Position numbers and translations under genes: made by a program
DNA from: Psammoneis japonica
Taxonomy: Eukaryota
Reading direction: 5' to 3'
Assembly: GCA_008632985.1 (NCBI GenBank)
Contig: QPGO01000139.1
Location: forward strand, 1-64,000
DNA: 64,000 nucleotides
Shown: positions 9,269 to 56,745 of the stretch, one piece after another
How positions within the stretch are numbered: the first letter of the stretch is position 1
How the letters are laid out: each line of letters starts with the position of its first letter
Notes under the pieces: generated by a model
What the model was told of the DNA's origin: nothing
Databases searched by the model: none
What the model saw: the letters and a program-made list of their open reading frames with translations, nothing else

Positions 9269-9311
9269 CTCCCTTCAACAATGTCGGGTGGAATGATGAC
9301 TCGAAAACGTC

Positions 9312-15056: not shown

Positions 15057-15116
15057 AGTGACAGCAGAGTAAAGTAGAATCGAGAGCTTAAGATCGATTG
15101 ACTTAACTTGTAGATT

Positions 15117-26652: not shown

Positions 26653-26679
26653 AGGGTTCAATATCCGTTTAGTTCGATG

Positions 26680-32089: not shown

Positions 32090-32540
32090 CCCACCATCCA
32101 AATCTGCCAATTGAGGAAAAGCTTGAAGTTGGAGGTTGTTTGTGGTTCTTTCTTTTTACCTGCTTTGTCCCCTGCATTGTTGTTGGGTGACATGCAAGTG
32201 CCACACAAGTTTCTCATTGAAATGAAAAAAGCAACACAAAGACAAATGGGCAGCCAATTTAGAGCCGCGCCAGTTGTCTGCCACTGTGCTGCCCAAATCT
32301 GCCAACTGAGGAAAAGCCCAAAGTCTGAGGTCACATTCATTGCTCTTTCTCATTGCTTGCTTTCTTGTTGTTGCACTTTGCCATTGTTGGACAAAATGCC
32401 AACATTGTGTGAGCATGTGCTGAAGCAGAAAAGTCAAACAAAGACAAATTGGCCAATTTGAAGCCACACCAGCTGTCTGTCATTTCACCATCCAAATCCA
32501 CCAATTGAGAAAAAGCTTGAAGTTGGATGTTGTTTGCAAT
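32090..32540 (+). repeat. Degenerate direct repeat, period about 196 bp
   Basis: ccaaatc(tg/ca)ccaa(t/c)tgag(g/a)aaaagc recurs at about 32098, 32294 and 32492. Confidence 0.65.
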
Positions 32541-32975
32541 TCCCAGCCATCTTGAAGTGCAAGCCATTGCAAAGCTTTTTAACTTGCTCGAGCTGATGAC
32601 CAAACTCCTCACAAGAAAAGATGAGATGTTGTGCAGCCAAGTCACAAGATTTGGAGCTGTTTTCTTTTGTCTTGTCCACTTTATGCTGCACATCATGCAC
32701 CTCCTGTTTTTGCAAATGATGACTTTCCAACTCATCAAAGCACTTGTCAATGGTTGGACATGGGCACAACTTGAGACTTGTTCCCTCATTTGACATGTTG
32801 CCATGGTGCAGCTCCCCAGCTTGATGGAGAGTCATCACATTGTGAGACCAGAAGAGGCACAAACAGAACACAACTGTCTTCTCAGCATTGGAGCATCTGG
32901 ACCACAGGATGAAAAACCCAAGTCCATTGAAAAAAAAATGCTTTGGCTCCTGACATGGTGATGCAAGCAACTGTT

Positions 32976-33984
32976 TGTCAAGGAATTTTCATGGCCACTG
33001 AACCCTCACCTCTGCTTTCATCTTGCTGTTTGGAGTGAGTTGTTTGGTGCATCATCCATTTGCCTTTCAGCACCACTGGGCACCTGTTGTTGCACAAATT
33101 TGAAGTTTGCACTGACAACTTCTGGGCAACCCAAGGCCAAGCAACAAAGACTGCCAAGTTCTTGAATGCAGTGGGCATCACAGGAAGCCTTGCAGGACTC
33201 CTTTTTGGGGATGTTGACTTGCTGGTTCAACACTCACTCCAAAGAGGCCCTGATGCTGCTTCAAGTGCTTGTGCCTGCCAACCCACAGTTGACAGAACAC
33301 TGCACACCTGCAAAATGAGTGACAGAGGAAGAGGCAGCACAAGCGGAAGGACCAAGGCCAAAGCATGGCCAAGGCAGAGGTGACAACAGTTGCAGGTCCT
33401 CTGGCCAGAAGAAGAAGACCAACAAAAAAGCTTTCAGCCTGACACAAAGTTCCACCCTTGCTTGCTTCATCACTGAGTGGCAATTTTTGCAGCAGTGCAT
33501 GTGAAGACATCAAAGAGAAAGCCTTCTTTTGCTTGCAAAAAGAGTGTGAGCAAGGTGCGAGCATCTGATGATGTCTTTGGAAGACATGAAGTGCAAGGGG
33601 TGTGGTTCTGAGAAGCTCACCTCGAAGGTGTCACCAGCGAAAATGCCCAAGGCAAGCATTGCAGAGTGCCACAAGGCACCAAAGGAAGGAACAGCATGAA
33701 GACAAAGAACTCAAGTGCAAAGCGGAGCTGAGCAACTACCACAGCAAAGTGGCGCAGTTTGAAGAATGAGACAACTGCACCTGTCAAGATCCTGGAAGAT
33801 TGCTGCACCAAGCTGATGAAGCAAAAGTGCAGGGCAATCCCAGATGCTCCAGCACTGGGGATGATCCAATCAAGCTGAGGAAGAAGCTGATCCAACCCCT
33901 TGCACTTGACTCAATGAGATGTGGGCACCCATTGCAACAACAAAACAACAAAACAACAAAACAACAAAACAACAAAAAAACAAA

Positions 33985-34015
<31 letters not shown>

Positions 34016-35954
34016 CACAACAACAACGACAACAATGACAACAACGACAACAATGACAACAACGACAACAACGACAACAACAATGACAACAAGCAACAAC
34101 AACAGCAGTTGGCCCAACAATGCAAAGGACCTGAGCCTTGCCCAGAAGAGCAGCTCCAGCAATGCTGTGGCATGCCACTGCTGGGGTGCACCAGGGCACA
34201 AGTCCCCAGGCTGCAAACATCTGAGCAACATTGCACACAACAGCTGCTGGTTCAAAAGCACCTGAACAAAACTGGATGTTGGGGGGCAGAGGCACACACA
34301 AACTTCAGCAGCAGGCAATGATGACCACCTGTTGGTGGATGGCAACAACGTGAGTGTCAACACCACCAGATCTAGCCAGCTGACCCACTCCAGCTGGAGC
34401 AGGAGCACGGCATGGCATGATGGGTTGCAACTGACAAACAAAAGGTCAGAAACAAGAAGTGTGAGCCAAGCCAATGCAGGCATCAAGAGCAACAAAATTG
34501 TCCTTGACAATGGCTTCACCCTCAGCATGCTGGACAAGAAGACTGGTGAGCAAGTCACAGTGTTTGGAGTTGACAATGTTGGACCATGTGCAATCACACC
34601 AAGCCAGCAATTCTTTGACCATGCAAAACATCTCCAAGAAGGTGAGTTGCATGTGAGAGCACTGAACTGTGGGTCTGATGGGGGGACATGCAAGCACTCA
34701 GACTATCTTGCAAGGCTGGAACACCCAGTGTGAGGGATTTTCAAGTGATTTTTGCATTCAAACCAGGTGAAGATCTTGTCCATCACACCTGAAGACATTG
34801 ACAGAATGGCAGCTGTTTGGGGTCCACCAATGGATGCACTGAAAGGCAAGACCAAACACATGCATTTTTTTCATGAGAGGAACAATGCCACAACAGCCAG
34901 CACACCTCAGCCATGCCAGAAGCAGAGAGAAGCAAGGTGTGATCCTCTGCATCAATGCTTTAGAAGCATGCTGAGTCAAGATGCTGCACGTGACAGACAA
35001 GACAATCAAGTGCCAATCAAGTGTGAGGCTAAAGTCAAAAGCACACTGATGTGTGGTGCAACACACTGGGACATGATTCTCCAACAGCACAACATGGTGC
35101 CACTCAAGTTTGGCTTCATTGCATGTGATCCCAAGTTGATGCAAAAGACAAGAGAGAGGGTCACACATTTGGGTGTGGTGAGAACACATCTTCTCTGCCA
35201 AAGTGGCATGACCCATCATTGAGAAGGCTCAGGTGCTGATGGAAGACATGAACAAACACATCAAACAGCATGCTCCAGAAGTTTGTGAACACATGTCTGC
35301 CACTGTTCCAACATTCTCCATGCACAAGGACAATGATGTGAGTGCACACCATGTGAGATTGGAGTGCATGACAGCAAGCACATTTGACCAAGGAACATTG
35401 GTGTGTCATTGGAGGCTGAGCCTCAAGGCAGGGCAAGGCATGTTGTTGCAAATGGAGGCAACGCACAGACAGTGTCATCAAACAGATGAGTTACAGCAAG
35501 TTTGTTGCTGGATCAAGAGGCAGGGATTTGAAGTTGGCCAAGACAGAAGTGATCCTCAATGCTCTTGGCCCAAAATTTAAATCATCAGCACAAACAACAG
35601 GAGTGTTTTGGAACATCCAGATCATCGGTGTTGTGAGGAATGCAGTGGCCCATTGAGAAAAAATGCTTTGACTCCTGATGTGGCATTGTGAGCAACCATT
35701 GGTGAAGGAATTTGAAGCTGCTGATCTCTCACCTCTGCTTTGGGCCTTCATCTCACCAGTTGTTTGGAGCAAATCATTTGGTGTGTCATCTGCTTGCCAT
35801 TTGGCATCACTGAGCACTGGTTGTTGCACAAGTTTCAAGTTTGCATTGACAACTTCTGGGCAACCAATCTGCTGTCAAGGTGAATGCAGCAAGCATCACA
35901 GGAAGCCCTGTGGGGCTCCCTTTTGGCAACATTGACTTGCCAGTTCAGCACTCA
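32976..35954 (+). mobile_element. Ancient, internally deleted Ty1/copia (CoDi-type) element with diverged LTRs (about 32976-33236 and 35700-35954)
   Basis: Flanking direct repeats share ctcacctctgcttt, ttgttgcacaa, gacaacttctgggcaacc and gcatcacaggaagcc. Internal relics: IVLDNGFTLS (protease-like), ITPEDIDRMAAVWGPPMDALKGKT (CoDi pre-integrase-like), KFGFIACDPKL (RT-like). Confidence 0.6.
33934..34107 (+). repeat. (CAA)n / (AAC)n imperfect microsatellite
   Basis: About 170 bp of caa/caaaa/gacaa units inside the relic gag region. Confidence 0.9.
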
Positions 35955-37199
35955 GGGCCCAAACAAACAAACTTGGAAGAGAAAGAAAATCCTTGCTTGT
36001 GAGGACCAGCAAAGCCAGACAACACCAGGTGCTCCTCTTTGTTCTTCAAATCTTGCACAGGCTGAAGCATTGCCATTGCAAACTCCTCATCCAACCCAAA
36101 GCATTTGAGTGCCTTGCCACAAAAAAAGACTGGGCACACTTGCAAGTTCTTTGTTGACAATGCCAAGAACTTGTTCAAAACATTGCTTGCTGTGCCATTT
36201 TTTCAACTGCAGCACAAACAACAAAGCATCAAAGTTGAGCATGTTGCTGCCCTGCTGAAGTCAACCTGCACTGGTGCATTGTGCTCAAAGAGCAAGTGCA
36301 AACAAGAGCAGAACAAATCACAAAAAGTGGAAAATTGTGAGATTGGATTTTGCTCTGCCAGTCTGGGTTTTTCCATGTGGGCTCTCAATGGCCCAAAGCA
36401 TTTGCACTGTGGTTGTTGCATGTCACAGTGCTCACAGAAGCTTGCAGAACAATCAATTTCAAATTTGGCTCAGCTGTGAAATGACCACATGTCCAGTCAA
36501 CTTCTTGGACAAAGCAAGCAGTTTCTCACTGACAACACTGCATTTGCCAGTCATCATCATGATGCAATGCTGCTGTGCTCAAACTGTCTGGACACACTTG
36601 CAATGATTGTCAATGTGTCTTCTGCATCCTTGAGACTCTTTCCAGGAAAAGCAAATTCAAGCTGAGCTGCAAAAAACTTTGGTTCTGAGTCTCAAGTCTG
36701 GGAGTCAGCAGAAATCTGAAACTGCACTTGCAAACTTCTTTCACATTAGCTTGGTTTGGACTGCATGCACTCCAACACTGCCCATGCATTGGTTTTGACT
36801 TCAGCACTGGCTTTCTGAGGACAATGACAAGCTCAATTAAAAATCCAGTGCACACACAAAATGAGGGCACATCTGACAACAAGAGTTTGGGTGACTGCAG
36901 GTCTTTTGAGGACAGTGCCCATGCTTGTGTCTGTTTGTTGATGGCATGCCATTTGCAAAATGGTTTGGTGTCAATGGTCCTGGCACATTTGTCACACCAC
37001 AATTTGCACTTGGCATGCCACAAAGAGGTCCTTGTCTCTTTCTCATCTCCTGCGGGGGCTGCTCCTGCTGCAGTTTTCATGATTTTTACACTCGCAACAC
37101 ACCTCTTCACATCTTTTGTTTTGGCCCCATGTGGGTGCATGTTGATGATGTGACGTGGCCATTGCTTTGATGCTTCTTGTGACTGTGTGCAGTCTCATT

Positions 37200-39400
37200 T
37201 TGATTGCTCATGTGCATGAGAGGGTTTTCCTTGTTTTTCATGTTCTTGGCAGCAGTGGCTGCCTTGAATCAATGCATGACTCATGCTTGCCAAGATTCAC
37301 ACATCCAGGACACTCAATTGGCATGCTTTTTTCTGGCTTGCACCCCCTCCAGCACATGCTTGTGGGCTCCATGCTGCCACACCTCAGCTCTGCCTGGAAC
37401 AAACCACTCTCTCCCACAAAGTGGCACAGTGAAGGCAAGTCAAGTCAATGATCAATGCAACAAGTTGAGATGGTTGGGCATGTGTGCAATGTTTGCAACT
37501 GCACATGACTCGTGAGCATTGCTTGTGTTCACAATGAAAGTTGGCCACCAGCAAGCAAGAAGGCAGCCAGGGTGTGGGGTCAGCAGCCACAGGCTTGGAG
37601 TTGCCAGCAGCAGGCTGAGCAACTGGCTCCCTTTGACTGGGTGCAGATGGGTTGGGAGTCAAGAGATTTCTTTTTTCAGCATTGGCGCATCTTCTTGGAG
37701 ATGCCTTGACTGTTCCACAGGAGGGTGTCTTCCAACTTGCCAGAACAACAAGGGGGACCCCTTTGGCTGGCCTGGCTTTTTTGCTCCCTTCACCTGTTGT
37801 TGTCCATCCTTCAACCTGGACACTCCTCCACCAGACGGCATTCATGTGGAAGTGGAGCTCATCACATGGCCATCAACTTGAAACAAGCTGGCATTTTTTG
37901 TTGAAGGATCATTCCTGTTTTGAGTTGGAGACACCCTGTCACAGCCTTGGCTCAGCTGCACCTCTTGGCAAGAACACATGTGAATGTTGTCACAGCATCT
38001 TGACACAGCTGCAAGTCTGTGGACACATTCACATGGCTTTTGCACAAGTGATGGGCATGAACGGATGTAAGAAGTCACATCTTGTGTGCTGCTGCTGAGA
38101 TGGCAGCAGCTGGCAAGGTGAACAAACACTGATCTTGTCTTGTGGCTCCAGAGTCCAGAGTGCCATGCATCCCAAGAAGCAGAAGTTGTTCCCTGTCACT
38201 GTGTGAACAGAAGGCTGGGATGGGAGGAGGGAAATTTTCAGTGTGGGGCACCATTTTTGGTTGGCAAACAGATCTCATGTCACACCAATGGCTCGCCAAG
38301 AACAACAAGGGATGTGCTTGGGCAGGCCTTGTCTTGCCATCGGCCATCTGTCCATCTCACTTCCACATCTGCACTGCTGTTGCTTGGTGTGCAAGGTGGG
38401 TGATGACAACTCCAAGAGCCCAACTGCCAACAAGAGATTCCACTCTGTCTTTGTCTTCTTGCAAGCTCAGCTCTCATGTGCTTTTGGCTCAGTGTGGACC
38501 TGAGCAGGATTGCTGCTGTGGCCAATTGGAGCTTTGATGTCTGACATTGAAATGCAAGCCAAAAGCATGACAAAACAATGTGTGAGTCCATGAACATCAC
38601 TCATTTGTCAGCCAACACAAACAACTGTCAAGTGATTGAGAAGCGGTGCACATGGTCTGCAAGTGCCTTGTTGACATGACTGCACCTGAGTGGCTTAAAA
38701 ATTCTTCCCATGTGGACCCCAAGTGTTTGACACAGCATCATCATGATGTTGTTGGTGCAAACAAAGGTGATTGGTGGTGGCAGTCCAGCCAATCATTTGC
38801 ACACATTGATGATCAGATGTAAAAATTGCAAGATTCTGGTGTTTGACACAGAAGCATGAAATTGACGTGGTCTTGATGATGGCAGAAAACAGCCCAGTTG
38901 GGTCAGAACTGCCAAGGAGGTCAACATCACTGTGCACAATCTTGCCTGGTTTGTCTGCAGCAGCCCTGGATGCCTTGGGCACCTGTGGGGGGTCTGGCCA
39001 GCATTGGTGGGCCCAGAGCACAGAGCACACATGTGGGGCGGGGGGCAGCAGGGATGTTGGCAATGTTGGTGTCAGGATGGTGTGTGCACAAGGCAGCTGC
39101 CCCACTGACCCCGCTCCAGTCATTTTGTAATTTGTTTCACACCTGGCACACACTGTTCTTCTGTGTGTGGCATGTGCATGGTCTGCTCCTGCTCAGCAGC
39201 TCTCATTGCAGCGCGTGCCTTTGAAGTGCTGGTGCCCCAAACACATGGGCATGTTGTGGTGGGGACTCAGGGGCAGCGCAGCATCATTGTGTTGGCAACA
39301 AGCCTTGGCTGACTTCACACTGCAGTTCAGTGTGCTGGTGCTTTTTCAAGGGTGGCAACACCCTGTTCCCAACCAACTTGCAAACCCTGCTGCTGGGGGG
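37200..39400 (+). mobile_element. Possible relic of a tyrosine-recombinase (DIRS/Ngaro-like) retrotransposon
   Basis: Weak motif resemblances in the expected order: TIFGWQ (RT), CTAVAWCARWVMTT (RNase H-like), GLRGSAASL (SLR.GGA-like box of YR). Heavily mutated. Confidence 0.2.
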
Positions 39401-39559
39401 TGCCCATGGTGTGGCAGGTGGTCCCATGCTGGCCAACTGGGCATTGACTTCTGAGCACATTTCCATGGATGGTGGCTCACAGTGAGGCCAGAGACATGTG
39501 AGTGGGCATCCATCTGCACAGCAACCAAGGACAATTCAAAGCAGCACACAGGAAAGCCT

Positions 39560-42300
39560 GTGGTGGCCAATCATCTGTCCCCTCAAAGATGGGGCAGCAA
39601 GGTCTGGCGCTGGGGCTGGGAGGTCTGTTCACTCTTGCCAGGAGCAGAGCCAATTGTTTGCAGCCAACTGGGTGTTGTGGACAAGAAGGGCTGGTGCAAG
39701 GTGTTGCATGGTGGGGTTGTGAGGTCACACTCAACACTCCAGCTCAGCTGGCGGCATTGGCAACCATGGTGGAGAGGGGGGGGGGGGGGGAGGTGCACTG
39801 GTGCACAACTTCTTTCTGATTGGTGGAGAGCGGTGCTGTCACATTGCACCTGCAGGCCACTTGGCAGCAGTGCATCTGCAGACTTGTGCAAAAGCAGCTG
39901 CTGGGGGGAGCTGCAGGTCCAGCCAAGGGGGGGGGGGCTTCTTGATCCACCATGAAAGACAAGGATGAATGGAGAGGGGTGTGCCACATGCACACCAGAG
40001 GGCACCTGTGGTGTGTGAGCAGTTGGGGGACACCCACACTTTGCCGAGATGATGTCATCAGCACTGTCCAAGAAGATTGTGGAAGTGCACTTCATTTCAC
40101 CCCTTCTTGACAATGAGTTGGAAGGTGTCAACCTGCACATTGTCAGGTGCAGCATGATGGAGGAGGCAGCCCCACCACCCAACGAGCCTTGAGCACCCAG
40201 TCAGACATGGCTGGTCAGAGCTCAGTGGTGCCAAGCATCTTGCCGTCATCAACGAAAGACCTGCCACTGTTTGCACGGCAATTGCATGGGCCAAGATGGT
40301 GGGCACATTCTTCATCCTTGTGACTGTCTGCTGGTTGCTTGATGTTGCAACAATCAACAACAACAAAGAATGACCTCCTTGGAAGATGCAGCAGTGTCTT
40401 GCCAAAGGTGTGCAAATCTTGGGTTCACTGTTCAATTGGTTTTTTGCAGAAAGCTCACAATTGACAGCACCTGTGGCTGCATTTCCAGGTTTAACAACAG
40501 CCTGCATTTCCATCCAGGAAGGCAGGGGGGCAATTGCAGCCTTCTGGCCAATGTCATGAGCTCCAGTCAAACATCTGCATTGTTTGACATTGTCATTCAA
40601 AAGGGAAAGGAAAGACTTGCAAGCCTTGATTTGGTTGAGCTGAGGAGGAACCACTCCAACAAATCTCTTCCTGAGGCAAAGGCATGCCACAGCCTGAGTG
40701 CAAACCTCCAGTTTCCAATCGTCTTGGGCTTGGGTGCATTGCCAAAATGATGGAAGTCCTCTCATCCACACCATGCTCCTCCTTGTGCAAGTGGAACAAA
40801 AGTGGATGAACAACTTGGACAAGTGGAAGCCAAAGAATTCATCTGCCATGTCAGCCAGGTTGCAGCCCATCCCAAGTGCCAACCAAAAGGAGCATCTGGG
40901 CTGTTGCACTCAAAAAGCACAGACCTGGAGTGCAGGCATGTGTTGCACATTGGACAGAAATCAACTCAAGGCAGTTAAGCTGGAACACCAAACACAAACA
41001 ATGGCACACCTCACAGACAAGTTGGGAGCATCCATTGGGGTCTAGGTTGCACTTGTTTTTGATGGTGAAAAACCCAGGCAACCAGCTGGTGTGCTCACCA
41101 TCATGCAATCCATTGCTGACACTGTGCCAAGACAATCAAATCATTGGAAGTTCCTGACATGCTGGGCCAGAATGGGATCACAGGCATCTTGATTTTTGCC
41201 ACATCATTGCACCCCTTGTGCATCTGCAAGTTGATTGCACAACATTTCAATTCGCTGGTTGCTGGGTCTGGTTGCATGCTCGACAGACCAATGACTTTGC
41301 TGCTGTCACCATTCTTGGTGTCATCTTGACACTCACAATCAAAGCCAGGTGCTTGCCATGTGGTGATGATTCTTGAACAGTCCATCATTGCCTTGGGGGG
41401 TCCATTGTGCTGCCAAACATTGTGCTGTGCTGTGGATGATTGGGGTTGGCAAAAGGGTGCTGACCCTTTGGGATGAAGGGTGCCATCTCACCTGACAATC
41501 CAGCAGCAATGGAAGATTTGATCATGGCATTGACAAAGGCAGGATTGGGCTCACGCTCGCTGGATTTTGACTGCAACTTGGGTGGCACATGTGTGGCTTG
41601 AAGCATGCTGGGACAGCTGTGTCCATCCGTGCTGGCAGTGTGTCCATTGGATTGGCCACCGGCGGCAAAGCCAACATCACAGAAGTCACTGGGTTTCTGC
41701 CATTTCATGGAGTTTTTCTTTGGAATGGCATTGAATTTACATCCAAATTCAATGCCCTCATGGACTCCACGCCAGTCAACCTCCTTCACCAAAAAGCACC
41801 AGCACCTTGGTCTCCTTTGTGGATGATTGTTGTGTTGTGTCATTGGTGTGGACAAACATTTTGGGATTGCACAAACACACAGCTGGAGACACACCCAGAG
41901 CTTCAAAAATCTGCTTCAGCTGCCTCATCAAAAAACCAATCTGGCGCTGGGCATGACCATGCTTGCCTTTGTGCAACAAATGTCCTTGGCACTTTGCCTG
42001 GGGCCAACAGCGAATCTCGGACACACACTCAAGGATGCGGTCAATGTCCAGTTTGCCTCTGTCAATGAAAGTGGATTTTTCTTCTCTGGAAAGATCAAAC
42101 CACTTGTCATTGAACTTCTTGATGAAAAAGCCATGGTTGAAAATAGAGTTCTTGTAGAGAGAAGCTGGCAAGGAGCGGCACAGATGCTGGAAATCTTGTG
42201 CAGTTTGGATGGGAGACATGGGTGGGCAGAAGCATTTGTTTGATGGATTGGCAGAAGCACACCATCAGTGTTTGCACCATGGGAAGTGGCAACATCAGCA
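39560..42300 (-). pseudogene. Decayed long coding relic, possibly an endogenised negative-strand RNA virus L (RdRp) gene
   Basis: Ordered motif resemblances: NQIK...(F), GAQGSLGGGAASSIMLH (B), LDSADDII (C), HKS...VQCDS (D/E). No clear motif A. Confidence 0.25.
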
Positions 42301-43249
42301 AGAACACTGCTCTCATCAAAACTGGCAGGGTCACCATCAGAGAGCAGGTGCAAAGCAGGGGAACTGCTGCCATTCTCATCAACATCATTGGTGTCACAAT
42401 CAAGGAAGAGGTGGCAAGGATCCAAGGCAGCAGTGTCAACAGTGGAAACCACTGAGGGGGGGAATCAGGGGAGACAAGCAGCCTGCCAACCCTGTCCATG
42501 CTTGGCTGACATTGAAAACTCAGTGCTGAGGGTGGAGCTTCAATGGCCAAAGCGGCTGTGCAAGTGAGGAAATGCCACCCTGTCTTCATCTTGTCAAGCC
42601 ATGCAGACAGGGAGAAGAGGCACCCAGAGGGCAAAGTCACAGCATTTGACTTGGCACTCCCCTTGCAATGATGTTTGTGCTTCCTGCCATGATTGCCAGA
42701 GTGACGGCACTTGTTGTCAGTGTGACGTTGCGAATGATGCCTGGCCCCCATTTCACCTGGAGGAGGCTGCAAAAGAGTGGTGGCTGAGGGACCATGATGC
42801 AACACATGTCACAATGCACACAAGGCAGCATCATTGGGGCATTGGTGTGGATGCTTGCCATGTGGCAGTCTTTTGCCATGGTGGCTGCTGAATTTCTTTT
42901 TGGCATGCTGTTTCATGTCGTGCGTGGGAGGAAATCCAACCGTTGAGAGTTCAAACTGAGCATTGAGTTCAAATTCTCATCAAATGTCTGTCTTTAATTG
43001 ACACAACATAAAGTTGCATGCTCTTGGAAATGTCACATGTGTGTGAAGCCAATGGATGGTCAGTCAACCACTTGGCGCACATGACGCAGGCATGACGTGA
43101 GATTGTTGCCCACTTTCCGGGAGGGCCATCTCCTCCTTGATGCCAATGCATCAGATGCCCATTTGCGGCCCACACATGAGCCGCAATTTTTTTCAAATCT
43201 TCAATGACAGAGACAATTGATGAACAGACCCCACAGTTGAATTCTCCAC

Positions 43250-44450
43250 ACCCAAAAACATGGGAATCTACACTTCAACTGTTGAAAAGGACCCACACTG
43301 GTTGTTGTTGTGGCCTCGTTTTTGAGCAATTTTTTGCCAGTTTCTCCCTCCACCATGGCAGACCCTGTGGCTGCTCCCACCAGCAAAAGATGTTCACTCC
43401 AGAAACCTCAGACGCCTGACAACATCATTGGGGAAATGCTGGGGTGGACATGTCAGAATTGCTTGCAGCAGGAACAGACACGTCTTTTTCACCTGTCAAA
43501 GACATGCCACAAAACCCAGCATCACAGTCTGCAGCAGAAGCACCAACTGTTCCCCCCCATGCATGCTCCCCCTCCAAGTCTTCCTGCGAGCCACCAGTGG
43601 CCAAGAGAGCTCAACTTTGACTCAGCTTTGCAAAGCAACAAAGGCAAGACAATGTGGGAAAAGAAGAAACGTGAGTTTGCATTGTTGCTGCAATGGTTGC
43701 TCACTGTCACTGTTCCATTGCTGTTCCAGCATGCTGCCATTGCTTGTCAGTGTCACTTGGAGCCAGTTTGGGTTGAGGCAACCGAGCCAGAAGATGAGGT
43801 GGAAGTGGAGTGTGAGGAGGCGTGGAGGAAGAAGAAGGTCAAGAGTGCCGGCGGCATCATTTGTCTTTGCACCGCTGCATCTTTGCTCTTGCGGGTTTTG
43901 AAAAACAACAACACTCACATGTCTGTTTTCACTCATTCACTGCCACATGTTGTTCCAGTGGCTTCTTGGGAAAAGTCTTGGCACCGCTGCCCGTCATTGT
44001 CATTTGAACGCCAAACCATCCCCACCATGTCAGAGTGCAGCACCACCCCCCTGAGTTTTCAGTCATGACACCTCTTTTGCCCAGTCTGCCCTTTGAAGGT
44101 CTGGTTCAAGTGCCGCTCTTGGAAAGTGACAAGAGTGATTGACTGTGTGTTGGTCTTTTGGGAAAAATGACAGAGTGCACCATTGATGTCCAGCAGCAAA
44201 ATTGGGTTTGGCAGCAACATTGGGTTTGTTGTTGTTTGGATTGTGTCACATCGCTCTTCCAACATTGATCTTTCCCGCAAAAATGACAACGAGACAAGCT
44301 TTGTTTTAAGAATTGTGGCCAATTTGCGGCCCACGTGTGGGTCGCAAAAACATGCGATAAGAATTTTTTGCCATTGTCGTCGGTCTCTCATGCACTCAAG
44401 CATGACAGGCCTGTCACACTTCCAGTGCGTGGACAGACGAAGTTTCAACG
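43250..44450 (-). mobile_element. piggyBac-like transposase relic
   Basis: MRDRRQWQKILIACFCD, ITLVTFQERHLNQTFKG, AACWNSNGTVTVSN and CMGG occur in the order of PGBD motifs MSRNRF..LHF.D, ESMVPF.GRH..KQ..GK, W.DN..VT..SN, YN..MGGVD. Confidence 0.4.
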
Positions 44451-44519
44451 TCCAACAACAGACAGTTGCAAGCAGATGGCATCACCATTTTTAGCTCTGT
44501 GTCACATGTGCACAAAAGG

Positions 44520-45590
44520 GCGACTGCACATCCAACCGTTGTTCACACTGGCGACATGCAAGCATGTGTGCCACAACACCCCCCTTCAAACCAATGCTCG
44601 GATGTTCACGAAGTGCGTTGGCTTGCACTGCATTCAGAGGCAGACATTTTTCCAGTTGTCAGTGTCTGGTGCGCGTGTTTGTGTGTTTTCATTGTGTGTT
44701 GCAACTGTCAGTGCAGTCGCCGGAGAGGTGTCTCCCACACCTGCGGGCACACTTTTTGTGTGTGTTGCATTTTTTGGCCACATGTTTTGATGTTTGTTTG
44801 TTGTGATGGCTGCTCTGTCAGGCACCTCGCACCCTGCTGGCTTCTCGCACCCTGGCTGGAAGGCATGTTTTGTGAGCTCCTCTTGCGCAGACATTTTCTG
44901 CATGTCAGTTTGGCTGTTTTGCAGGCATTTGCCCCCCTGCGTTGCCGCGAACTTTTTTTGCATGAATTCGAGGCGTCGAACCTGCGACCATCAGCGCGAG
45001 GGACGGGGACATTGTGATGTGTTCATTTGCGCAGTTGTCAATGTTGGCCTCGCATTGGATGGGGACATGCTCGGTTCGAATGGGGACATGGTGAGGCACG
45101 CTCGTCACGCTTTGGGGCACAATGGCGCGCGTGTTTGTCAAATTGTTGACGCAGGCCTCCTTGCGCTTTGGGGCACAACAGCCACCATGACGCCAGAGGG
45201 GACACAACAGGGATGCGCTTGTCAGGAACGGGGACATTGCAGCATGAGGAACGGGGACATTGTGATGCATTCATTTACATGGTTGTCAACATTGGCCTCG
45301 CATCGGACGGGGACACGCTCTGTTCGAACGGGGACATGATGGGACAAGCTCGTTACGCTTTGGGACATAGCAATGCATTCATTTTTTTTAATTGTTAATG
45401 TAGGCCTCGTTATGTTTTGGGACACGCTCGTTACGCTTTGGGATATAATAATATATTAATTTATGAAATTGTTAATATAGGCCTCCTTACGCTTTGGGAC
45501 ATAATAACCACCACGACACCAGAGGGCACATCCAACCGTTATGTATTCACACTGGTGATATGCAAATAATAGAGTACACCATAACACTCT
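44520..45590 (+). repeat. Tandem/dispersed repeat units straddling the right border of domain A
   Basis: 45097-45200 is collinear with 45423-45526; about 45002-45160 resembles 45250-45410; 44526-44580 resembles 45526-45587. Confidence 0.85.
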
Positions 45591-45689
45591 GCAGCTACTG
45601 TACAGAGTATCGCCAAACGGACAGCCATGCCTTCACACTTGCCTGAACTCCTCCGTCAAAACCATGTCAAAACGAAGCTGGAATAAACA

Positions 45690-46487
45690 ATGACTTCACT
45701 GCTACAACAATTCCTTCTTCCGGCCGTCGGGTTGTTCGATTCATGGTGGACAACGATGACAGATTCACAACGTTGTGCAGTCGTGGCCAACGTCTTATTT
45801 TGGATGTGGAGTGGCGTTTGTTGGATGTTAGATCGGTACAGCACGCAAGAGCGAAAAACACCGGTCGGCAAATGGTTGCACCAACAAAAGATACAGGGTG
45901 ATGTCGCATTCACGTACTGTACGACGAATCCTCAATTAGGATGGAAGATCTTACGTATCGCTGCATTGAACATGATCGCTGTAACACCCATCATTGCAAT
46001 TGGTGCAGAATATTTATTCAACACACTGTACGGTGCTGATCGACGATTGACATGTAGCGATGAGTGGAGGGCAACGATTGAGATTCCTAAACTGGTCATT
46101 TCATTTGCAACCGTATCTGTTTGGTTCTATTCGACACATCGGATGCTGCACTGGAAATACTTTTACAAGACGATTCATAAGCTGCACCATAGTGTCACAG
46201 CACCGATGGCCATGTGTGCCGTCTACACGCACCCGATCGAATTCGCGGTGGGGAATGTTGCCGGTGTTGCACTTGGACCAATCCTAACAAACGCTCACCC
46301 CTACACTTCTTATGTGTGGTACGGACTGGCGTTGACCGATACCTGTCGGATGCATTCCGGCTACAAATTTTTGGGTTCATCCCGACATGATGACCATCAT
46401 AACGAACACTTCAATCACAACTTTGGTAACCGGGTGATGGACACCGTCTTCAGAACGCATGCGCCATCATCCCGGAAAAAAATGTAG
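45690..46487 (+). CDS. Fatty acid hydroxylase / sterol desaturase family protein
   Basis: His boxes HRMLH, HKLHH, HDDHH; YTHPIE; MHSGY; NFG...MDTVFRT. Confidence 0.88.
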   Translation: MTSLLQQFLLPAVGLFDSWWTTMTDSQRCAVVANVLFWMWSGVCWMLDRYSTQERKTPVGKWLHQQKIQGDVAFTYCTTNPQLGWKILRIAALNMIAVTPIIAIGAEYLFNTLYGADRRLTCSDEWRATIEIPKLVISFATVSVWFYSTHRMLHWKYFYKTIHKLHHSVTAPMAMCAVYTHPIEFAVGNVAGVALGPILTNAHPYTSYVWYGLALTDTCRMHSGYKFLGSSRHDDHHNEHFNHNFGNRVMDTVFRTHAPSSRKKM

Positions 46488-46880
46488 GAACGAATAGATT
46501 GCAACACTTCACTAGACTGACTTCTGCACACTGAATACTGTAGATTAACGATTAACTCTCAACAAGAAAACAAATGCACGCGCGACAGTACACAGTCGCA
46601 CACCACCATTTTGGTAAGCAAAATGGATCATCATGGTCATGAGAATTCAGAAGTTCAGTTCCAGTACCCACACACATGTTGTTGTTGTCAGTGCTGTTGC
46701 GCATCGAAGCGAAACCCCACGTACAATTAGTCTGCCCATCATCCGAAAACGCTGGAAAACGAGCTACCACCCAAACGACAACAAAACAACAAAAAGGATT
46801 TCGTCGATCGGCCATGGCCGCATAGCAGCGCCGATTGCATCAACAACAGTGACACCGCCCTTGTACATCTCTTCCCAACC

Positions 46881-48444
46881 ATGCCTCCAGTGGTGAGGAC
46901 GTTTCTTTTTCTATCAAGATCTGCTCTTATTATTGTCAGCATGAGGTGCTTTGCGGCTGCGTTTGTCGGCCGTCATTCCCACGCCGTGCTTCGACAGGTT
47001 TTGAATGGAAGAATCATTTCAGCGACAACAACCACAAGGCCGATTTCATCCTTTCAACGCTTTGAATCTCTCCCTCCTGACTACACAATCGTTGAGGATG
47101 ATGACGAAGACGATGACGAAGATGTTCCACTTGGCGCAAACCTTCCGTTTTTCACTGGGGAGACACGAAATCATCTGTGAAAGTTGACGAGAGCAGTACG
47201 TCAATACCGACGAGGCGCAGTGTCAAGAAAAAAGCAAGTCAAACAATTCCTGAAACATCATGGATGGAAAAGAATACAAACTTTTCTTTTGACGAGCCAA
47301 AGCAGAAACCACGTAAGGATCGTAGGGAAGAGCGCAGAAACAACAATCGTCGGCAAAAGAACGATCGAAATGCGAGTTTCAAGGATGATTTCCGTGGAAC
47401 ACGGGTGTTTGTGCAAGGGCTGAATCAAGATACAAGCTGGCAAACTGTAAGTGTATCGAAATGAATGTGAAACTTGGCAGATACAACCAGCAGCAGTCTC
47501 ACAAGTTTGTTTATGCTTTTTTCGAAATCGCTGTGACGCAGCTCAAGGATCACTTTCGCACGGCAGGGGAGGTCGTCTTTGCATCCATAAGCGTGGATGG
47601 TCAGACAGGACAGTCCAAGGGATGCGGTGTGGTTCAATTTGAAACAACAGCCGAAGCACAAAATGCAATTAAAATCATGAGAGACTATCCATTGGAAGGT
47701 GCAACGCTTTACGTTAGGGAGGACGTCCAAGACAAGGCTCCCAGGCCGCGTGGTGGGGGTAACACAACTCCGCCTTCTAAATGGAAATGCGCGAATGAAG
47801 CAAACATAGAGAACATGTCAATGGAAGAACGAGATAATATTCTATCCCTTATCAAAGCACGCGATCAAGCACGGAGGAGAAAGAATTACGAAGCTTCCGA
47901 CGATATGAGGGACGAGCTCAAATACGAGTATGGAATTCATTTGGATGATCGCTTGAAGCTTTGGTGGAGTGACGTGAATGGGAAACCTCCCGAAATGATT
48001 TCAGATATCAAAGGTGAGGGACGTTGGGGGAAAGCGCGGTCGTGGAGACAGATTCCTACGACACCAGAGAATGATGCTTGTGTGGATCCCGATTTAGTTG
48101 AGGGCTTATTGAAACAACGGGACATTGCACGAAGAGAAAAGGACTTTGAAACCGCTGATGCACTGCTGGAAGAAGCACGAACGGCACCCGATGGCGACTT
48201 GTACCTACGCATCCACGATGAAAGTCGAACGTGGCGGATCTGGACGGAGGCTCCGCCGCCGAAAGCTTTTGATCAAGGTGTCGCCCGGGAAAGGGTCCGA
48301 AGAAGTGCATCTGAGCAATGCCTTGACATTGTCTCAGAGCATGCGCCAGATAAAGTCGCGGAAGTTCGTAACATGTTGGAGAAATTTCCTGGAAGGGAGT
48401 ATAGCATTCTCAAGAAACTGAAACAGCGATACGAAAAACGATAA
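46881..48444 (+). CDS. Organelle-targeted RRM protein with two repeats resembling the CysRS C-terminal helical domain; one intron, frameshift at about 47158
   Basis: RVFVQGL..DTSWQT|LKDHF...SKGCGVVQF (RRM); ARDQARRRKNYEASDDMRDEL and QRDIARREKDFETADALLEE. Confidence 0.7.
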
Positions 48445-48558
48445 ACAGCACAGGCATTGTAGTGAAACTACGTCTATTGACAATTATGATTCTATCTGCG
48501 ATCGATCGATGTACTTTGCTTTCTTTGACACGAGTAGCTGTCCTTGTCTATCGCCCGT

Positions 48559-50455
48559 CTAAAAACTTCCAGGATCCATTCCTGGAGACTCAAGAGATGC
48601 TTGAGTCGATGATGGCGCTAGATATGGATTTCTCCACCGAGTATTCTCAGTGTCGGGATATTGAATAGTGGTCTCCTCCTCGTCCTCATGCGGGTAGCAT
48701 GCACAACATGAACATAGCTCAATGTTTTCGGATCTAGATTTTTCAAGGGGTTTATAGCTGAAAAGGCAGAGAGAAAGGGTGAAATGATTGGATCGAATAG
48801 AACACGTCTTTACCAACGTCTATTGGCTCGCTCACCTGACTTCCCCAAACATAGGAATAACAGTGACTCCTTTGCTTTCGACACTAGTCCACCCATTCGC
48901 CTCGAAGCGTAATCTCATCGGATGAACAGCCGCTTGACCACCGTACAACAGCAGTCGAGCGAATTCGTCTCTACTGACCGCCCAGGCTCCCATCCCAACA
49001 AGACATATCACCAGTGGTGCCATAGCAACGACGAATAATCTGGTTTCAAGCTCCACTGGTCGCTCGAGCGGAATAACCTCCCCAACAACCACCAGGAGGA
49101 CGATGAAGATTAAGGATGCCATTGAGTACAGTATTCCTGCAGTGAGCTGCGCCTCAGTCAGCTGATAGTACCCGACCTGATGTCCATATACAATATAAAT
49201 TAGCAGACCCGATGACATGCTAAGCACCGCGACAAGTGGAGAAACAATGAGTCTCCATCGTATTCCGTCAACCGAGTGGTCCACTTTCAAAACTGCAAGT
49301 ATCATTGCAGTGCAAACTAGTATCCAACAGAGAAGCTTTAGGACGTGTTGAGTCTTGCATATTACACCATCGAGAATTCCACCACCAACCAAAAGCCACG
49401 CAGGGATAAGGTCGCAGCCAATGAGATCGAACCATGCGCAATTCGAAGATAGACCAGAATCTCAAAGACGAATAGACAAAACGATAAAAGGCCGGTTTTG
49501 AGGCCGAATTTGAGAGATCGCTGCAGCAATGGCAGATACTCAGTGCGATCCAAGTGATCGGTTGAGTCTGGTCGCTGTCTATTATCATTTGCGTCCGAAA
49601 TGAATCCTGAAAGAGCTCTGGCAGACATAATATGGCACCATAAAAGTCCCACGTGTGATAACCACGATGGGAGCAAAATGAACCAAAAAGGCAAATCATT
49701 AATCATCTGCGTCCATCGAACCGCTCCCAGTAGCGCTGTAAGCGAGAACCGATGGAAACACAAGCTTGTAGGTCGGAGAAAGACGAAGGCATGAGCTGAT
49801 GGAATGATATCGGACTTTACACCCAGTCCATGCACATATCCCATACTTACCCATGTTGCAATAAGCGGTTTCATAACCTTCAGAGCGGCCTTGCGGACAG
49901 CATATATTTCTTCTGGCATCTCAAATAAGGGTTGCCCCCCTGCTCCTCCCGCTTGAACTGTCTCTGGATTTTCTATAATCTGCGGTTTATATACACCCGT
50001 AGGACGCCTTAATTCCCCCTGGTTCATTGATTCTGATCCTTCCACTGCTCGCGCATAGTGAGCAGCATGATGTTGTCGCGAATGATGGTGATCATCGTCT
50101 GAGAACATCGCGTATGGTTGATCAGTTGAATTGTAATTGTGATCGTCTTCGAATCGCTGGTTACCCGCCGCTCGCCAGATTGATATTCCCTGTGTTGACC
50201 CCTTGACTTCTCCATCTGAAACCCACTGGAGTTGTCCATGATATCTGGCTGATAATGTAGCTGCTGAAGCGACGACGGAGACTTGCTCGACCTTCTCGAT
50301 CGAATCGACCCCTTCCCGTAGGATCCAGTAGAATTTCTACGTAAACCTTCGTCGGCGGTGGACGCAAGGAGCGGATCGGACTCTGTCGCCGGTCCTTCCG
50401 CTTTCTTTGACGCAGTTCTGCTTCTACTATCACCAGCACTACTACTAGGTCTCAT
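48559..50455 (-). CDS. Multi-pass membrane protein, TMEM185 / Fragile-X-F-like; introns, apparent frameshifts at about 50165 and 49402
   Basis: LPFWFILLPSWLSH and LAVLKVDHSVDGIRWRLIVSPL; several TM segments; Cys-rich C-terminal exon. Confidence 0.55.
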
Positions 50456-52762
50456 CTCATTCCCACCTTGATGCGGCGGGTGGGTATCGCCGTCTTTGGG
50501 GCTGCCTCGATTTACAATACAAAAAGCTTGTTGAAACTCGATATTTATTTGCCTTTGTGGTTATTTCTCTTTTTTTGTTTCATACGAATACGCTATTCTC
50601 ATAAATTCGATATTTGAACTTGAAGAAAATAAATTAATGAAGAGATTATATTAATACTATGGAGTTCTAAATTAGAATAAGTATCAATAATGATCTCCAT
50701 AAATAAATCTCCAAAATACATTTTACCAAATATAGCTCTTTATGTGGATAATAAATCCGTTGGGATCGTCATTGCAGTTCTCAGATAATCGGTTGGAAGC
50801 TCTGTGAGAAAAACTCTCATGAGCAGAAAATGGCCAGGCCCTGCAGCAAGTGTGCTGCCCTTGCCCCCTTTTTTGTGCAGACTGTAAATGACAAACACCA
50901 TCTGCCAAATGAAGAACAGTGCATGTTCATTTGTCAACTCAGCACTGCACGGCTTTGAAGTGCTGCAAAGAAAACTCAAAGCAGAAGCAGTGCTGGCAGC
51001 GTCGCAACAACTTGCGCCTCAACCCTGGCTGACAAATCCACACAAGAGCAGCAATTGAAGCCTTGGCAGCCAAGAGACTGCAGAAAATGTGGGTGCAATG
51101 CTCTGCACAAACCATGTGAACAGAGGGCATCCACCGCACATGTCCATTTTTGCTGGTTGGGAGAGGGTGGCTTTGGAGCGGCTTTGCTGCAGCACACCCC
51201 GGCTCTCCTGGAGCTGGCCTGAGCAATTCTTCATGTCATGTCATGTCATGCCAGTGCTGCCAGCTGCTGCTGAAAGTTGTGGTTTGAGCTCAAAATCACA
51301 TTTCCTCCATGCTGTTGAGTCCTTGCATGAGACGGGTCAGCCACAAAACAAGGAGGCAATCTCCACAATGTGCTCATGCCGTGTGTGTGTGTGTGTTGGC
51401 TCCACAATGTGGCAAGTGCCGCATGACTTCTGCAAAGCAGTGAAGAGACTGCACCATGTGGGAAAACTGCTCAAACACATGTGTGCCCAGAGTCCCAAAG
51501 GACATGAGCAAACACCACAAACAGCGAGCTTTCACGGTCGTGCGATTGAGATTTCCAGCCTTGGCTTCTGCCGCTGAAAGTTTGTGCACAATTGCTCAAA
51601 CTTGCACCCCCATTTGCTCAAACTTGCAAAAAAAAATCCAGGTTGTGTTCAACATCAACATTTGTGGACAACGTGAGTTGAGTTTTCCATTGACACGCCA
51701 ACAAGACACTTCTTGTTTCCCAACTGCGCTGCCATCCCCCCATCCAAGACAAAAGGCCATTGCAAACAATGGTGTGCATGACTGCCCACTGCAACTGCAT
51801 TGAATTTCCACCACATGACAACAAAAAGCATGCCATTAGAACTGGCACATTTTGGTTGGCACAGAGGCACCATTTTTTGTTTTGTCAGAACAGCAAACAC
51901 AGACTCATGGGCTGATTTCATTGCCTTTCAACTGGAAAGTTCTTGAACCCTCATCTTGGGACATTTTGACCCCCCTGCTCTACAACCAATCAATGTGAAA
52001 ACAGCGCCATTAAACCCACTGCATCAAAGCCAGTCTGCATGGTCACTGCTGTGTCTCGAGGAAACAAGAATTTGGGGACCTTGGTGCATCAACTTGTGGG
52101 CAATGCATCAAGGCCAGCGGGGTCCTTTGAAAACAATGAGTCGATCTCAGCACAAAATGCATCATGATTCAACAATTCCTTCTGTGTGGTGCTGCTCAAC
52201 ATTTTTGTGGCAAAACTTGGCATGCCAGCTTTGGGGCCAAACTTGGCATGCCACCAACTTTGGAGCCAAACTTGGCATGCCAACTTTGGCACAAAACTTG
52301 GCATGCCAAATTTGGGGCAAAACTTGGCATGCCAGTTTTGGGGCAAAAATGGGCATGCCAACTTTGGCACAAAACATGGCGCGCCAGCTTTGGGGCAAAA
52401 CTTGGCATGCCAACTTTGGGGCAAAACTTGGTGTGCCAACTTTGGAGCAAAACTTGGCATGCCAACTTTGGAGCAAAACTTGGCATGCCAGCTTTGGGGG
52501 GTGAAACTTTGCATGCCAACTTTGAAGCAAACTTGGCTTGCCAACTTTGGGGCAAAACTTGGCATGCCAGCTCTGGGGCAAAACTTGGCATGCCGACTCT
52601 GGGGCGAAACTTGCCATGCCAACTTTGGGGCAAAGCTTGGTGTGCCAACTTTGGAGCAAAACTTGGCATGCCAACATTGGGGGGCGAAACTTTGTGTGCC
52701 AGCTTTGAAGCAAACTTGGCTTGCCAACTTTGGTTTAAAACTTGGCATGCCAACTTTGGCAA

Positions 52763-53321
52763 GGGTCTGCGGGAAATCACAATTTTCACCACCTGCATGT
52801 CAAAATTGATGGAGTCGTGCCTGCCAGCACAAAATCTGTCTGACAAGACAAATTTGTCACTGACATCACCTCACAGGAAAGACATTTTCCAGACACAACT
52901 TTTGATGCAAAAAACTGTGTGAGACAAAGAAAGCTGTGGGAAGACCCGGATGTGCACAACCAAAAATGTCCCAAAATTTTGTGTTGTGCAGGAATGCACC
53001 AGGCTTCCACACATGAAAGAACCTGTGTGTGCATTTTTCAAAATGTGTGACACAACTTTCAAAACGCACATCCGGGTCACATTTTTTTGTGCAGATTTTG
53101 TGCTGGAAGTCTTGCAGGAATTCTAAAAACACCCGGATGTGCATTTTCAAAACTGTGGCACAACTTTGATTTGTGTCAAAAGTTGTGTCAAAATTGTGTC
53201 AAAAACGCGCGAGCTCATCACGTGGAAAAAGTGCGTGCGGCTGCACTGCTGGCGTTGCAAACGGTCGAAACTCACAGAGACTCTCTGTTTTTTGCTTAAA
53301 AACATGATTTCCTGCAGACCC
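52763..53321 (+). mobile_element. MITE (559 bp), PIF/Harbinger-like, copy 1
   Basis: TIRs GGGTCTGCGGGAAA / TTTCCTGCAGACCC, flanked by CAA on both sides (3-bp TSD); no coding capacity. Confidence 0.75.
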
Positions 53322-53996
53322 CAAAACTTGGCATGCCAACTTTGGAGCAAAGCTTGGCATGCCAACATTGGGGGGTGAAATTTTGTGTGCCAACTTTGAG
53401 GCAAACTTGGCTTGCCAACTTTGGGGCAAAACTTGGCATGCATGCCAACTGTGGGGCAAAACTTGGCATGCCAACTTTGGGGCAAAACTTGGTGTGCCAA
53501 CTTTGGGGCAAAACTTGGGGCAAAACTTGGCATGCCAACTTTGGCGCAAAACTTGGCATGCCAACTTTGGGGCAAAACTTGGCACGCCAACTTGAGCTTG
53601 GAACTTGGCATGCCAACTTTGGAACAAAGCTTGGCATGCCAACTTTGGGGGGTGAAATTTTGTGCGCCAATTTTGGGCAAACTTGGCTTGCCAACTTTGG
53701 GGCAAAACTTGGCATGCACGCCAACTTTGGGGCAAAACTTGGCATGCCACTTTGGCTCAAAACTGCTTGGCATGCTAACTTTGGGGCAAAACTTGGCACG
53801 CCAACTCAGGGGCAAAACTTGGCATGCCAACTTTTGGGGCAAAATTTGGTGCGCCAACTCTGGGGCAACACTTGGTGTGCCACCTTTGGGGCAAAACCTG
53901 GCACACCAACTTTGTGGCAAAACTTGGCACGCCAACTTTGGGGCAAAACTTGGTGTGCCAACTTTGGTGCAAAACTTGGCATGCCAACTTTGGCAA

Positions 53997-54562
53997 GGGA
54001 TCTGTGGGAAATTTTGTTTTCAAGCAAAAAACAGAGAATCTCAGTGAGTTCCAACCGTTTGCAACACCAACGGTGCAGCTGGCTGCACGTGCTTTTTCTG
54101 CGTGACAAGCTTGCACATTTTTGACACAACTTTGACACAATTTTTGAAACAAATCAAAGTTGCGCCACAGTTTCAAAAATGCACATCCGGGCATTTTTGG
54201 AATTCCTGCGAGACTTCCAGTGCAAAGTCTGCACAAGAAAATGCAGCCCGGGCGTGCATTTTGAAAGTTGCGCCACACATTTTGAAAAATGCACACACAG
54301 GTTTTTTTGCATGTGGAAGCCTGGTGCATTCCTGCACAACACAAAAGTCAGGACATTTTTGATTGTGCACATCCAGGTCTTTGCAAAACTTTTTTTTGTC
54401 TCTCACAGTTTTTTGCATCAAAAGTTGTGTCTAAAAATGTCTTTTCTGCGCGGTGGTGTTGGCAACAAATTTGGCTTGTCCAACAGATTTTGTGCTGGCA
54501 GGCATGACTCACATCAATTTTGACACACAGGTGGCAAAAATGGCAATTTCCCACGCAGACCC
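53997..54562 (-). mobile_element. MITE copy 2, inverted relative to copy 1
   Basis: Diverged reverse complement of 52763-53321 over its whole length; ends GGGATCTGTGGGAAA and TTTCCCACGCAGACCC. Confidence 0.75.
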
Positions 54563-56649: not shown

Positions 56650-56745
56650 GAGGGCTGGGAAGTCAAGAGGAATCTGCACAGTGAGGGCTGGGAAGTTGAG
56701 AGGAATCTGCAGATGAGGGCTGGAAAGTTCACAGGAATCCAAAAG
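56650..56745 (+). repeat. About 33-bp tandem repeat, three copies
   Basis: gagggctgg(g/a)aagt...aggaatc repeated three times. Confidence 0.75.

Follow-up and report, generated by a model that had tools for sequence, protein, structure and literature searches.

Loss of TA runs ahead of loss of CG in two repeat-rich, non-genic blocks of a Psammoneis japonica contig

The first 64,000 nucleotides of the forward strand of contig QPGO01000139.1 from Psammoneis japonica (Eukaryota; assembly GCA_008632985.1), here called the window, contain two non-genic blocks that are nearly free of the dinucleotide TA (31681 to 45276 and 50885 to 61737) and together make up 24.4 kb or 38% of the window. CG is erased in the cores of these blocks as well, while a margin of about 1 kb at the right end of the first block lacks TA and retains CG. 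TA loss is ahead of CG loss in every comparison, and the reverse was never seen. This pattern is rather probably the product of two separate context-specific transition processes on silent non-genic DNA, a fast TpA mutator and a slower CpG decay, both ending at TG/CA. The CG zones of block 1 were delimited by a three-segment maximum-likelihood Poisson change-point fit, which placed the breaks at 41.54 and 44.24 kb. The blocks and zones are as follows.

31681 to 45276, unstranded: TA-free block 1, the whole intergenic space between two genes, defined by TA positions and read contigs
31700 to 41540, unstranded: core of block 1, TA and CG both erased (4.8 CG/kb, change-point fit)
41540 to 44240, unstranded: intermediate zone, TA-erased with partial loss of CG (14.4 CG/kb, change-point fit)
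44240 to 45280, unstranded: CG-retaining TA-free margin, the heart of the finding (50 CG/kb, change-point fit)
50885 to 61737, unstranded: TA-free block 2, patchy CG, defined by TA and CG counts

Normal DNA of the window (positions 1 to 31500) has an observed/expected ratio (o/e) of 0.60 for TA and 0.98 for CG (56.6 CG/kb), and the CG o/e of the gene zones is 0.98 to 1.04. In the blocks overall, the TA o/e is 0.01 to 0.07 and that of TG and CA 1.5 to 2.1. Core 1, taken for these ratios as 31700 to 42900, shows values of 0.03 for TA and 0.09 for CG. Between 44250 and 45280, only 4 TA (o/e 0.07) are present together with 52 CG (o/e 0.75), compared to a density of 9.3 CG/kb in the remaining TA-free DNA (Poisson P = 1e-21). 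The CG o/e of block 2 is 0.30 at 50.9 to 56.0 kb, 0.05 at 56.0 to 60.2 kb and 0.51 at 61.0 to 61.74 kb; the second of these stretches is the poorest of the window in CG and also in TA (o/e 0.01), with 2 TA in 4.2 kb and a TA-free run of 3716 bp. An earlier reading of the sequence alone had marked 42900 to 45340 as a sub-domain without TA and with abundant CG, most clearly at about 44.2 to 45.3 kb. The latter part is borne out by the counts, and the strings quoted from it are present at 44941 to 45000; of the full range, only 44.24 to 45.28 kb is truly CG-rich, and 42900 to 44250 is intermediate (CG o/e 0.30).

When the window was divided into 250-bp bins (n = 256), 138 were normal in both dinucleotides and 75 were without both, while 20 were TA-free with either intermediate (12) or normal CG (8); the rest were borderline. 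The reverse class, normal TA with CG lost, was not found among the 256 bins. The eight TA-free bins with normal CG are those beginning at 44501, 44751, 45001, 51501, 53001, 54001, 61251 and 61501. Four of them (53001, 54001, 61251 and 61501) lie at the further places of this kind that the sequence-only reading had listed (53.0 to 54.9 and 61.3 to 61.7 kb), and its description of cores without both dinucleotides agrees with the values found there (CG o/e 0.05 to 0.09, TA o/e 0.01 to 0.03). TA, CG, TG and CA together amount to 240.7 per kb in normal DNA and to 245.4 per kb in core 1, with shares of TA, CG and TG plus CA of 17:24:60 in the former and 1:2:97 in the latter. The change consists solely of transitions inside pyrimidine-purine steps. 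Both strands are affected equally, as seen from the o/e of TG (1.87) and CA (1.94) in core 1 and from the 8 CA and 6 TG that replace TA in the repeat at the edge of block 1.

This edge is sharp, as is the left edge of block 2: 0 TA were counted in 45001 to 45200 versus 24 in 45401 to 45600, and 24 in 50601 to 50800 versus 1 in 50801 to 51000. The 200 bp outside these two edges are thus exceptionally TA-rich, the second having 27% GC; such flanks may be an image of the block DNA before erasure or may be barrier sequences. The TA border of block 1 runs through a 248-bp tandem repeat with a 77-bp sub-repeat, three units of which (U1, U2 and U3) are compared below.

44992 to 45239, + strand: inner copy of the 248-bp tandem repeat, fully TA-erased, contains U1 (45092 to 45177)
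45240 to 45541, + strand: outer copy of the 248-bp tandem repeat, TA-free to about 45340, holds U2 (45340 to 45417) and U3 (45418 to 45503)
44526 to 44588, + strand: mutated short segment copy, with a TA-rich copy at 45526 to 45595

The inner and outer copies share 77.7% of their nucleotides and 96.3% in purine/pyrimidine code; across the edge repeat alignments, these values are 74 to 78% and 96.3 to 96.5%. The sample that could be polarised comprises 175 aligned bases with a partner outside block 1, including 18 TA and 6 CG. Its polarity is assumed, with the TA-rich outer copies taken as nearer to the ancestor in place of an outgroup; the overall composition and the direction of change in Bigelowiella natans (Mettrop et al., bioRxiv 10.64898/2026.01.13.699255) back this choice. 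With this polarity, none of the 18 outer TA was kept in the inner copy (8 CA, 6 TG, 3 CG and 1 other), whereas five of the six outer CG were kept and one became TG (Fisher p = 1.4e-4 for 18/18 versus 1/6 lost). Transitions per site amount to 21/38 for TpA, 12/62 for other A/T, 1/12 for CpG and 2/56 for other G/C, the difference between other A/T and other G/C sites being significant as well (p = 0.0096). In total, 33 A:T-to-G:C transitions are opposed by 3 G:C-to-A:T transitions and 5 transversions, again with the polarity assumed. TpA accounts for 21 of the 33, and the 12 off-context changes are found mostly in AT-rich runs.

The same alignment bears on the origin of the CG in the margin. The sequence-only reading had pointed to CG in the inner copy opposite TA-rich runs of the outer one and had suggested that loss of TA can create CpG. 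Both are recovered here, the latter in a small sample and under the assumed polarity: where the outer unit has (TA)n runs, the inner one has (CG)n, and of the 11 inner CG, 5 are retained, 3 occupy former TA and 3 former TT, CA or TG, so that 6 of 11 are new. At the off-context rate of 0.19, 3.5 of the 18 TA would be expected to take a second hit; as 3 changes from TA to CG were observed, a simultaneous double hit is unnecessary. At the three sites with CG in U1 and TA in U3, the intervening U2 reads TG, CA and TG. The units form a spatial series over about 250 bp, in which U3 has 13 TA, 5 of these remain in U2, and none remains in U1; U2, half erased, is located directly outside the last TA-free run. 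Since the erasure fades over about 250 bp within one repeat, a positional (chromatin-domain) limit is favoured over homology recognition. No CG gradient was found between the TA-free halves of the 248-bp repeat (CG in the inner half only at 3 sites, in the outer half only at 4), and CGCG as a relic of TATA is not in significant excess (5 in 1.03 kb versus 3.1/kb in normal DNA). Homology of the regions at 42.9, 44.5 and 45.5 kb past approximately 75 bp was considered and is unsupported, as the transition-tolerant alignments look spurious.

An apparently intact retrotransposon in normal DNA allows a second comparison, between its two long terminal repeats (LTRs).

8921 to 15480, - strand: Ty1/copia retrotransposon, apparently intact, with long open reading frames (ORFs) of 494, 736 and 552 amino acids, assigned by Pfam
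8921 to 9271, - strand: 3' LTR of the copia element, in normal DNA
15130 to 15480, - strand: 5' LTR of the copia element, carrying six of the seven TA-to-TG/CA differences

The element encodes the Pfam domains gag_pre-integrs, SH3_retrovirus, Pol_BBD and RVT_2. Its LTRs (351 bp) are 97.2% identical, and 100% identical in purine/pyrimidine code over 348 bp. The ten differences comprise seven of TA versus TG/CA, which are seven of the nine transitions, one CA/CG, one AA/AG and one transversion. Per copy, 7 of 28 TA were lost compared to at most 1 of 38 CG (p = 0.008), corresponding to a ratio of loss rates of about 10 with wide uncertainty. Together with the bins and the edge repeat, this agrees with the proposal in the sequence-only reading that the two losses are uncoupled and that TA goes first. 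Relative to TA loss, CG loss is slower by a factor of at least 3, and probably of about 10 or more. The element as a whole is nearly untouched (TA o/e 0.67), and a nascent TA-poor patch around the LTRs was not evident. Considering this and the TA-rich outer units of the edge repeat, repetition alone is no trigger.

Block 2 holds a third pair, two spacers in inverted orientation.

52763 to 53321, + strand: spacer sp1, inverted duplicate of 53998 to 54562, TA-free with intermediate CG
53998 to 54562, - strand: spacer sp2, inverted partner of sp1, TA-free with intermediate CG

Over 567 columns, 70 transitions and 11 transversions (1.9%) were counted. The pyrimidine-purine columns contain TG/CA 15 times, CG in both copies 5 times, CG in one copy only 15 times, TA in one copy only 3 times and TA in both never. 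With single-copy CG counted as losses, approximately 93% of TA and 60% of CG would have gone from each copy in a simple model; as these CG are equally readable as new CpG, the pair establishes no more than the lead of TA loss. Three arrays of a 26-bp satellite, TA-free and nearly CG-free, are located at 52204 to 52759, 53322 to 53993 and 54893 to 55811. The middle array lies between the inverted spacers of about 560 bp (84% identical), which results in a large palindrome-like structure. An old satellite at 57200 to 59480, with periods of 20, 61 and 121 bp and copies 60 to 70% alike, coincides with the lowest TA and CG of the window. Metagenome scans gave no match to the 26-bp satellite and none to the motif of the edge family.

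Transversions and gaps served as proxies of age. Transversions amount to 0.3% in the LTR pair, 2.7 to 3.5% in the edge repeat and 3.9 to 7.4% in four core pairs (3.9 to 5.1% with 7 to 9 gaps for the duplicates of core 1), and the core pairs have 7 to 13 gaps compared to 0 to 2 in the LTR and edge pairs. The summed depth of contigs at least 85% alike is 184 to 612 at 42.8 to 45.2 kb, 52 to 127 at 40.0 to 42.8 kb and 57 in genes, which identifies the sequence at 42.8 to 45.2 kb as a multi-copy family. Contexts of family variant sites were read by eye in 40 of 265 variant rows. Six of the 11 sites listed between 43.2 and 45.0 kb are CG versus TG/CA, with the CG in the window at four and in other copies at two, so that CpG decay is under way in this family; at one further site, the window reads CA and most other copies TA. 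These proxies favour youth for the CG-rich margin, which would then belong to a younger multi-copy family, while lesser methylation is a possible alternative. A 30-nt motif with a GC-rich imperfect palindrome is present twice in the sub-domain (43157 to 43186 and 44318 to 44347, 1161 bp apart) and may be a structural feature of its repeat family.

In the two-process explanation, the first process would be a fast and persistent A:T-to-G:C mutator centred on TpA, which turns TA into TG or CA, acts more weakly on other A:T pairs, especially within AT-rich runs, and would be limited to sharply bounded chromatin-like domains and not to repeats as such. By analogy with what is proposed for B. natans, this process is probably an enzymatic adenine deamination; speculatively, the off-context hits in former AT-rich runs might reflect an enzyme dependent on DNA that opens easily. 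The second process would be a slower decay of CpG to TpG/CpA, most likely deamination of 5-methylcytosine (5mC) on methylated repeat DNA. At 44.24 to 45.28 kb, and less so at 41.5 to 44.2 kb, the first process would be complete and the second barely begun. About half of the margin CG would be ancestral and about half supplied by the first process, either by two hits (TA to CG) or by one off-context hit (TG/CA to CG). The mutator would be persistent, since C-to-T changes at CpA/TpG would regenerate several TA per kb had erasure stopped, while 56.0 to 60.2 kb is near TA-free despite 6 to 7% transversions. It thus appears to keep acting in CpG-free DNA and not to be guided by 5mCpG. The TA-first order would be a matter of rates and not of a causal chain.

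A rather unlikely, albeit substantial, alternative is that the uncoupling is spatial, with a TpA-mutator domain wider than the CpG-methylated domain and a margin as old as the interior, in which CpG is un- or weakly methylated as a promoter buffer. CG is indeed higher than in the adjoining core at three of the four block edges (45.3, 50.9 and 61.7 kb), and the margin of block 1 faces the 5' end of a hydroxylase gene. Moreover, the edge repeat keeps five of six CG, whereas the interior spacers have 5 CG/CG columns against 15 with single-copy CG; this comparison is not significant, and the CG columns of the spacers could be new CpG. On the other hand, a CG margin is absent from the left edge of block 1 (0 to 2 CG per 200 bp from 31.6 kb), the CG-normal patches at 51.5, 53.0 and 54.0 kb sit inside block 2, away from its edges, and the other family copies read TG/CA at the four listed sites where the window has CG, so that these CpG decay somewhere. 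The self-reinforcing ratchet suggested by the sequence-only reading, in which TA loss makes CpG, CpG methylation deepens silencing and silencing brings more mutation, could draw on the new CG in the polarised sample and on the (CG)n opposite outer (TA)n runs. As a causal chain it is very improbable: the CG of the margin is not above normal (o/e 0.75 versus 0.98), the CG-poorest stretch is also the TA-poorest, so that erasure continues without CpG, and TA is already disappearing from the young LTR pair, whose CG are intact and whose gain of CpG is limited to one ambiguous site. A difference in rates would suffice for the TA-first order, without the ratchet.

Nearly as improbable is a single deaminase that is efficient on A in TpA and inefficient on C in CpG, without any role of 5mC. 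Such an enzyme would account for the common domains and the common end state of both losses, and activity on A as well as C in DNA is reported for ADAT2-type enzymes, which the B. natans preprint cites. The same preprint gives 210 of 211 mutations in a viral region as A>G or T>C, and the ratio of CG to TA retention in the window varies by locus (LTR pair, edge repeat, spacers), unlike the fixed ratio predicted for two activities of one enzyme. An artefact is hardly credible. Systematic miscalls at modified sites, or a misassembly, might look like this, with sharp borders and complete conversion, but contigs built independently from reads by k-mers (X1, word depth about 50 to 57) reproduce the TA-free sequence, with 2 other letters at 40000 to 41032 and 3 at 41004 to 43168. 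This agreement excludes base-calling and assembly errors and leaves room for strain-specific oddities, as X1 is possibly the source sample of the window itself. In addition, the same repeat site reads TG in one copy and CA in another, as expected of real independent mutations. Most differences between window and contigs (n = 229) are transitions, namely 52 of A>G, 51 of G>A, 47 of C>T and 55 of T>C, compared to 55 transversions in total. GC-biased gene conversion was rejected because the GC content is 0.49 in the blocks versus 0.48 outside and the changes are context-specific, and retro-editing because the changes are present on both strands and also outside retroelements.

Several points weigh against the explanation by two processes with different rates. 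The window offers no outgroup for the edge repeat, so that its polarity is a choice, and the polarised sample is small (the 175 bases, 18 TA and 6 CG given above). The spacers kept fewer CG than the edge pairs at similar or lower divergence (1.9% versus 2.7 to 3.5% transversions), and age alone may therefore not explain the margin; the order may be partly spatial, with weaker CpG decay near block edges, and not purely temporal. Finally, the 12 of 33 A:T-to-G:C changes off TpA either depart from the strict rule of B. natans or reflect divergence of the reference copy.

Each block occupies the interval between two neighbouring genes, up to the end of the first and the start of the second. Both are made of decayed repeats, namely the 26-bp and 20/61/121-bp satellites, the inverted duplicate and dispersed duplicates. 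In a Pfam search of 67 out of 106 stop-to-stop ORFs of at least 110 amino acids in the blocks, from which the 39 ORFs inside satellite arrays were omitted, no family scored above the cut-off, and no retroelement protein was matched. A trace of FA_hydroxylase at 51947 to 52501 (E = 0.018) is a weak Pfam match unsupported by tblastn. In a tblastn search of the blocks with 213 ORFs of the normal zones, the best match reached only E = 0.004 over at most 28 amino acids; hence, no gene/pseudogene pair is available for polarising changes. Searches of the window for tRNAs and against Rfam gave no match. A (CAA)n microsatellite of about 59 units with a strong local A-over-T skew is located in core 1 (33935 to 34104). 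The gene next to the margin is listed here.

45690 to 46487, + strand: fatty-acid hydroxylase family gene (Pfam PF04116, E = 6e-16; homologues with up to 69% identity)

This gene has a normal composition, begins approximately 400 bp beyond the edge of block 1 and is covered by spliced, cDNA-like contigs of run X2. The genes of the window are compact with short introns. The X2 contigs are confined to the gene island at 45625 to 50547, where they split at 47446/47542 and 48757/48836; the skipped stretches (47447 to 47541 and 48758 to 48835) suggest two short introns. No X2 contigs were found on the blocks, which is not evidence of silence. In normal DNA, three diverged direct repeats of about 290 bp (26338 to 27277) are located at and beyond the 3' end of a thiopurine-methyltransferase-like ORF.

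Among the known systems, repeat-induced point mutation (RIP), known from ascomycetes such as Neurospora, resembles the window in its dense and sharply delimited hypermutation of repeats by transitions, which inactivates mobile DNA. RIP follows duplication and changes C to T at CpA, thereby making TpA from CpA. In the window, in contrast, TpA is erased and not enriched, and the mutation does not follow duplication, as the edge lies inside a tandem repeat of which U3, with 13 TA, is spared, as is the copia element. Editing of retroelements by ADAR or APOBEC enzymes produces clustered A>G or C>T changes with a preference for neighbouring bases on one RNA or cDNA strand and stops at the ends of the element. 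The window shares the clustered transitions and the neighbour-base preference, whereas TG and CA occur at about the same level, the changes extend to satellites and spacers, and the blocks have no retroelement protein matches.

The closest likeness is found in B. natans, for which TpA-restricted hypermutation of integrated giant-virus and virophage DNA is described in the preprint (Mettrop et al., 10.64898/2026.01.13.699255); among 211 new mutations in one viral region, 210 were of the A>G or T>C type, and each of these hit TpA. Common to both cases are the A:T-to-G:C direction, the change of TpA to TpG/CpA, the local action on non-host or repeat DNA and a lasting depletion of TpA with enrichment of TpG and CpA. 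In contrast to that description, blocks of 11 to 14 kb in the window are completely erased, with satellites and every other non-genic sequence included as far as the genes, CpG is lost as well, and about one third of the polarised A:T-to-G:C changes are off-context. In B. natans, mutation was measured directly; the window offers a comparison of sequences. In a full-text literature search, which left aside the supplementary tables of the preprint, this was the only work on TpA hypermutation, and nothing was found on its interplay with CpG decay; the text of the preprint contains neither 'CpG' nor 'diatom'. The CG process is probably 5mC deamination by analogy with other silent repeats. Transposons are reported as the only carriers of 5mC in Phaeodactylum, and for diatoms such 5mC is reported to coincide with repressive histone marks (PMC12344493). 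As in methylation-driven CpG decay, CG changes to TG/CA in silent repeats while neighbouring genes keep their CG. Unlike in the classical cases, the decay in the window overlies and lags behind a second process that is unknown there.

A targeted A:T-to-G:C mutator of nuclear DNA is so far described in a single preprint, and its enzyme is still to be named. To this, the window adds the order and a rough rate ratio of two processes, the making of CpG on the side and a block edge situated inside a repeat. The mutator is separable from CpG decay and ahead of it, kinetically and spatially, so that the two can be studied and dated apart. The edge, which passes through a repeat and stops within about 250 bp beside a gene, points to targeting of chromatin domains over RIP-like sensing of homology, while the by-product CpG and the continued work in CpG-free DNA argue against 5mC as the guide of the mutator. 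As a tentative extension, in which confidence is distinctly lower than in the two processes themselves, these features could belong to a chromatin-aimed defence by adenine deamination of DNA that is independent of homology and 5mC, acts without CpG and feeds fresh CpG into methylation decay. All pyrimidine-purine steps would then be driven to TG/CA, with TA and CG retention as the fast and slow hands of a clock dating the entry of a sequence into the silent domain. If the two-rate picture were true genome-wide, TA and CG retention would provide a built-in two-speed clock of heterochromatin history.

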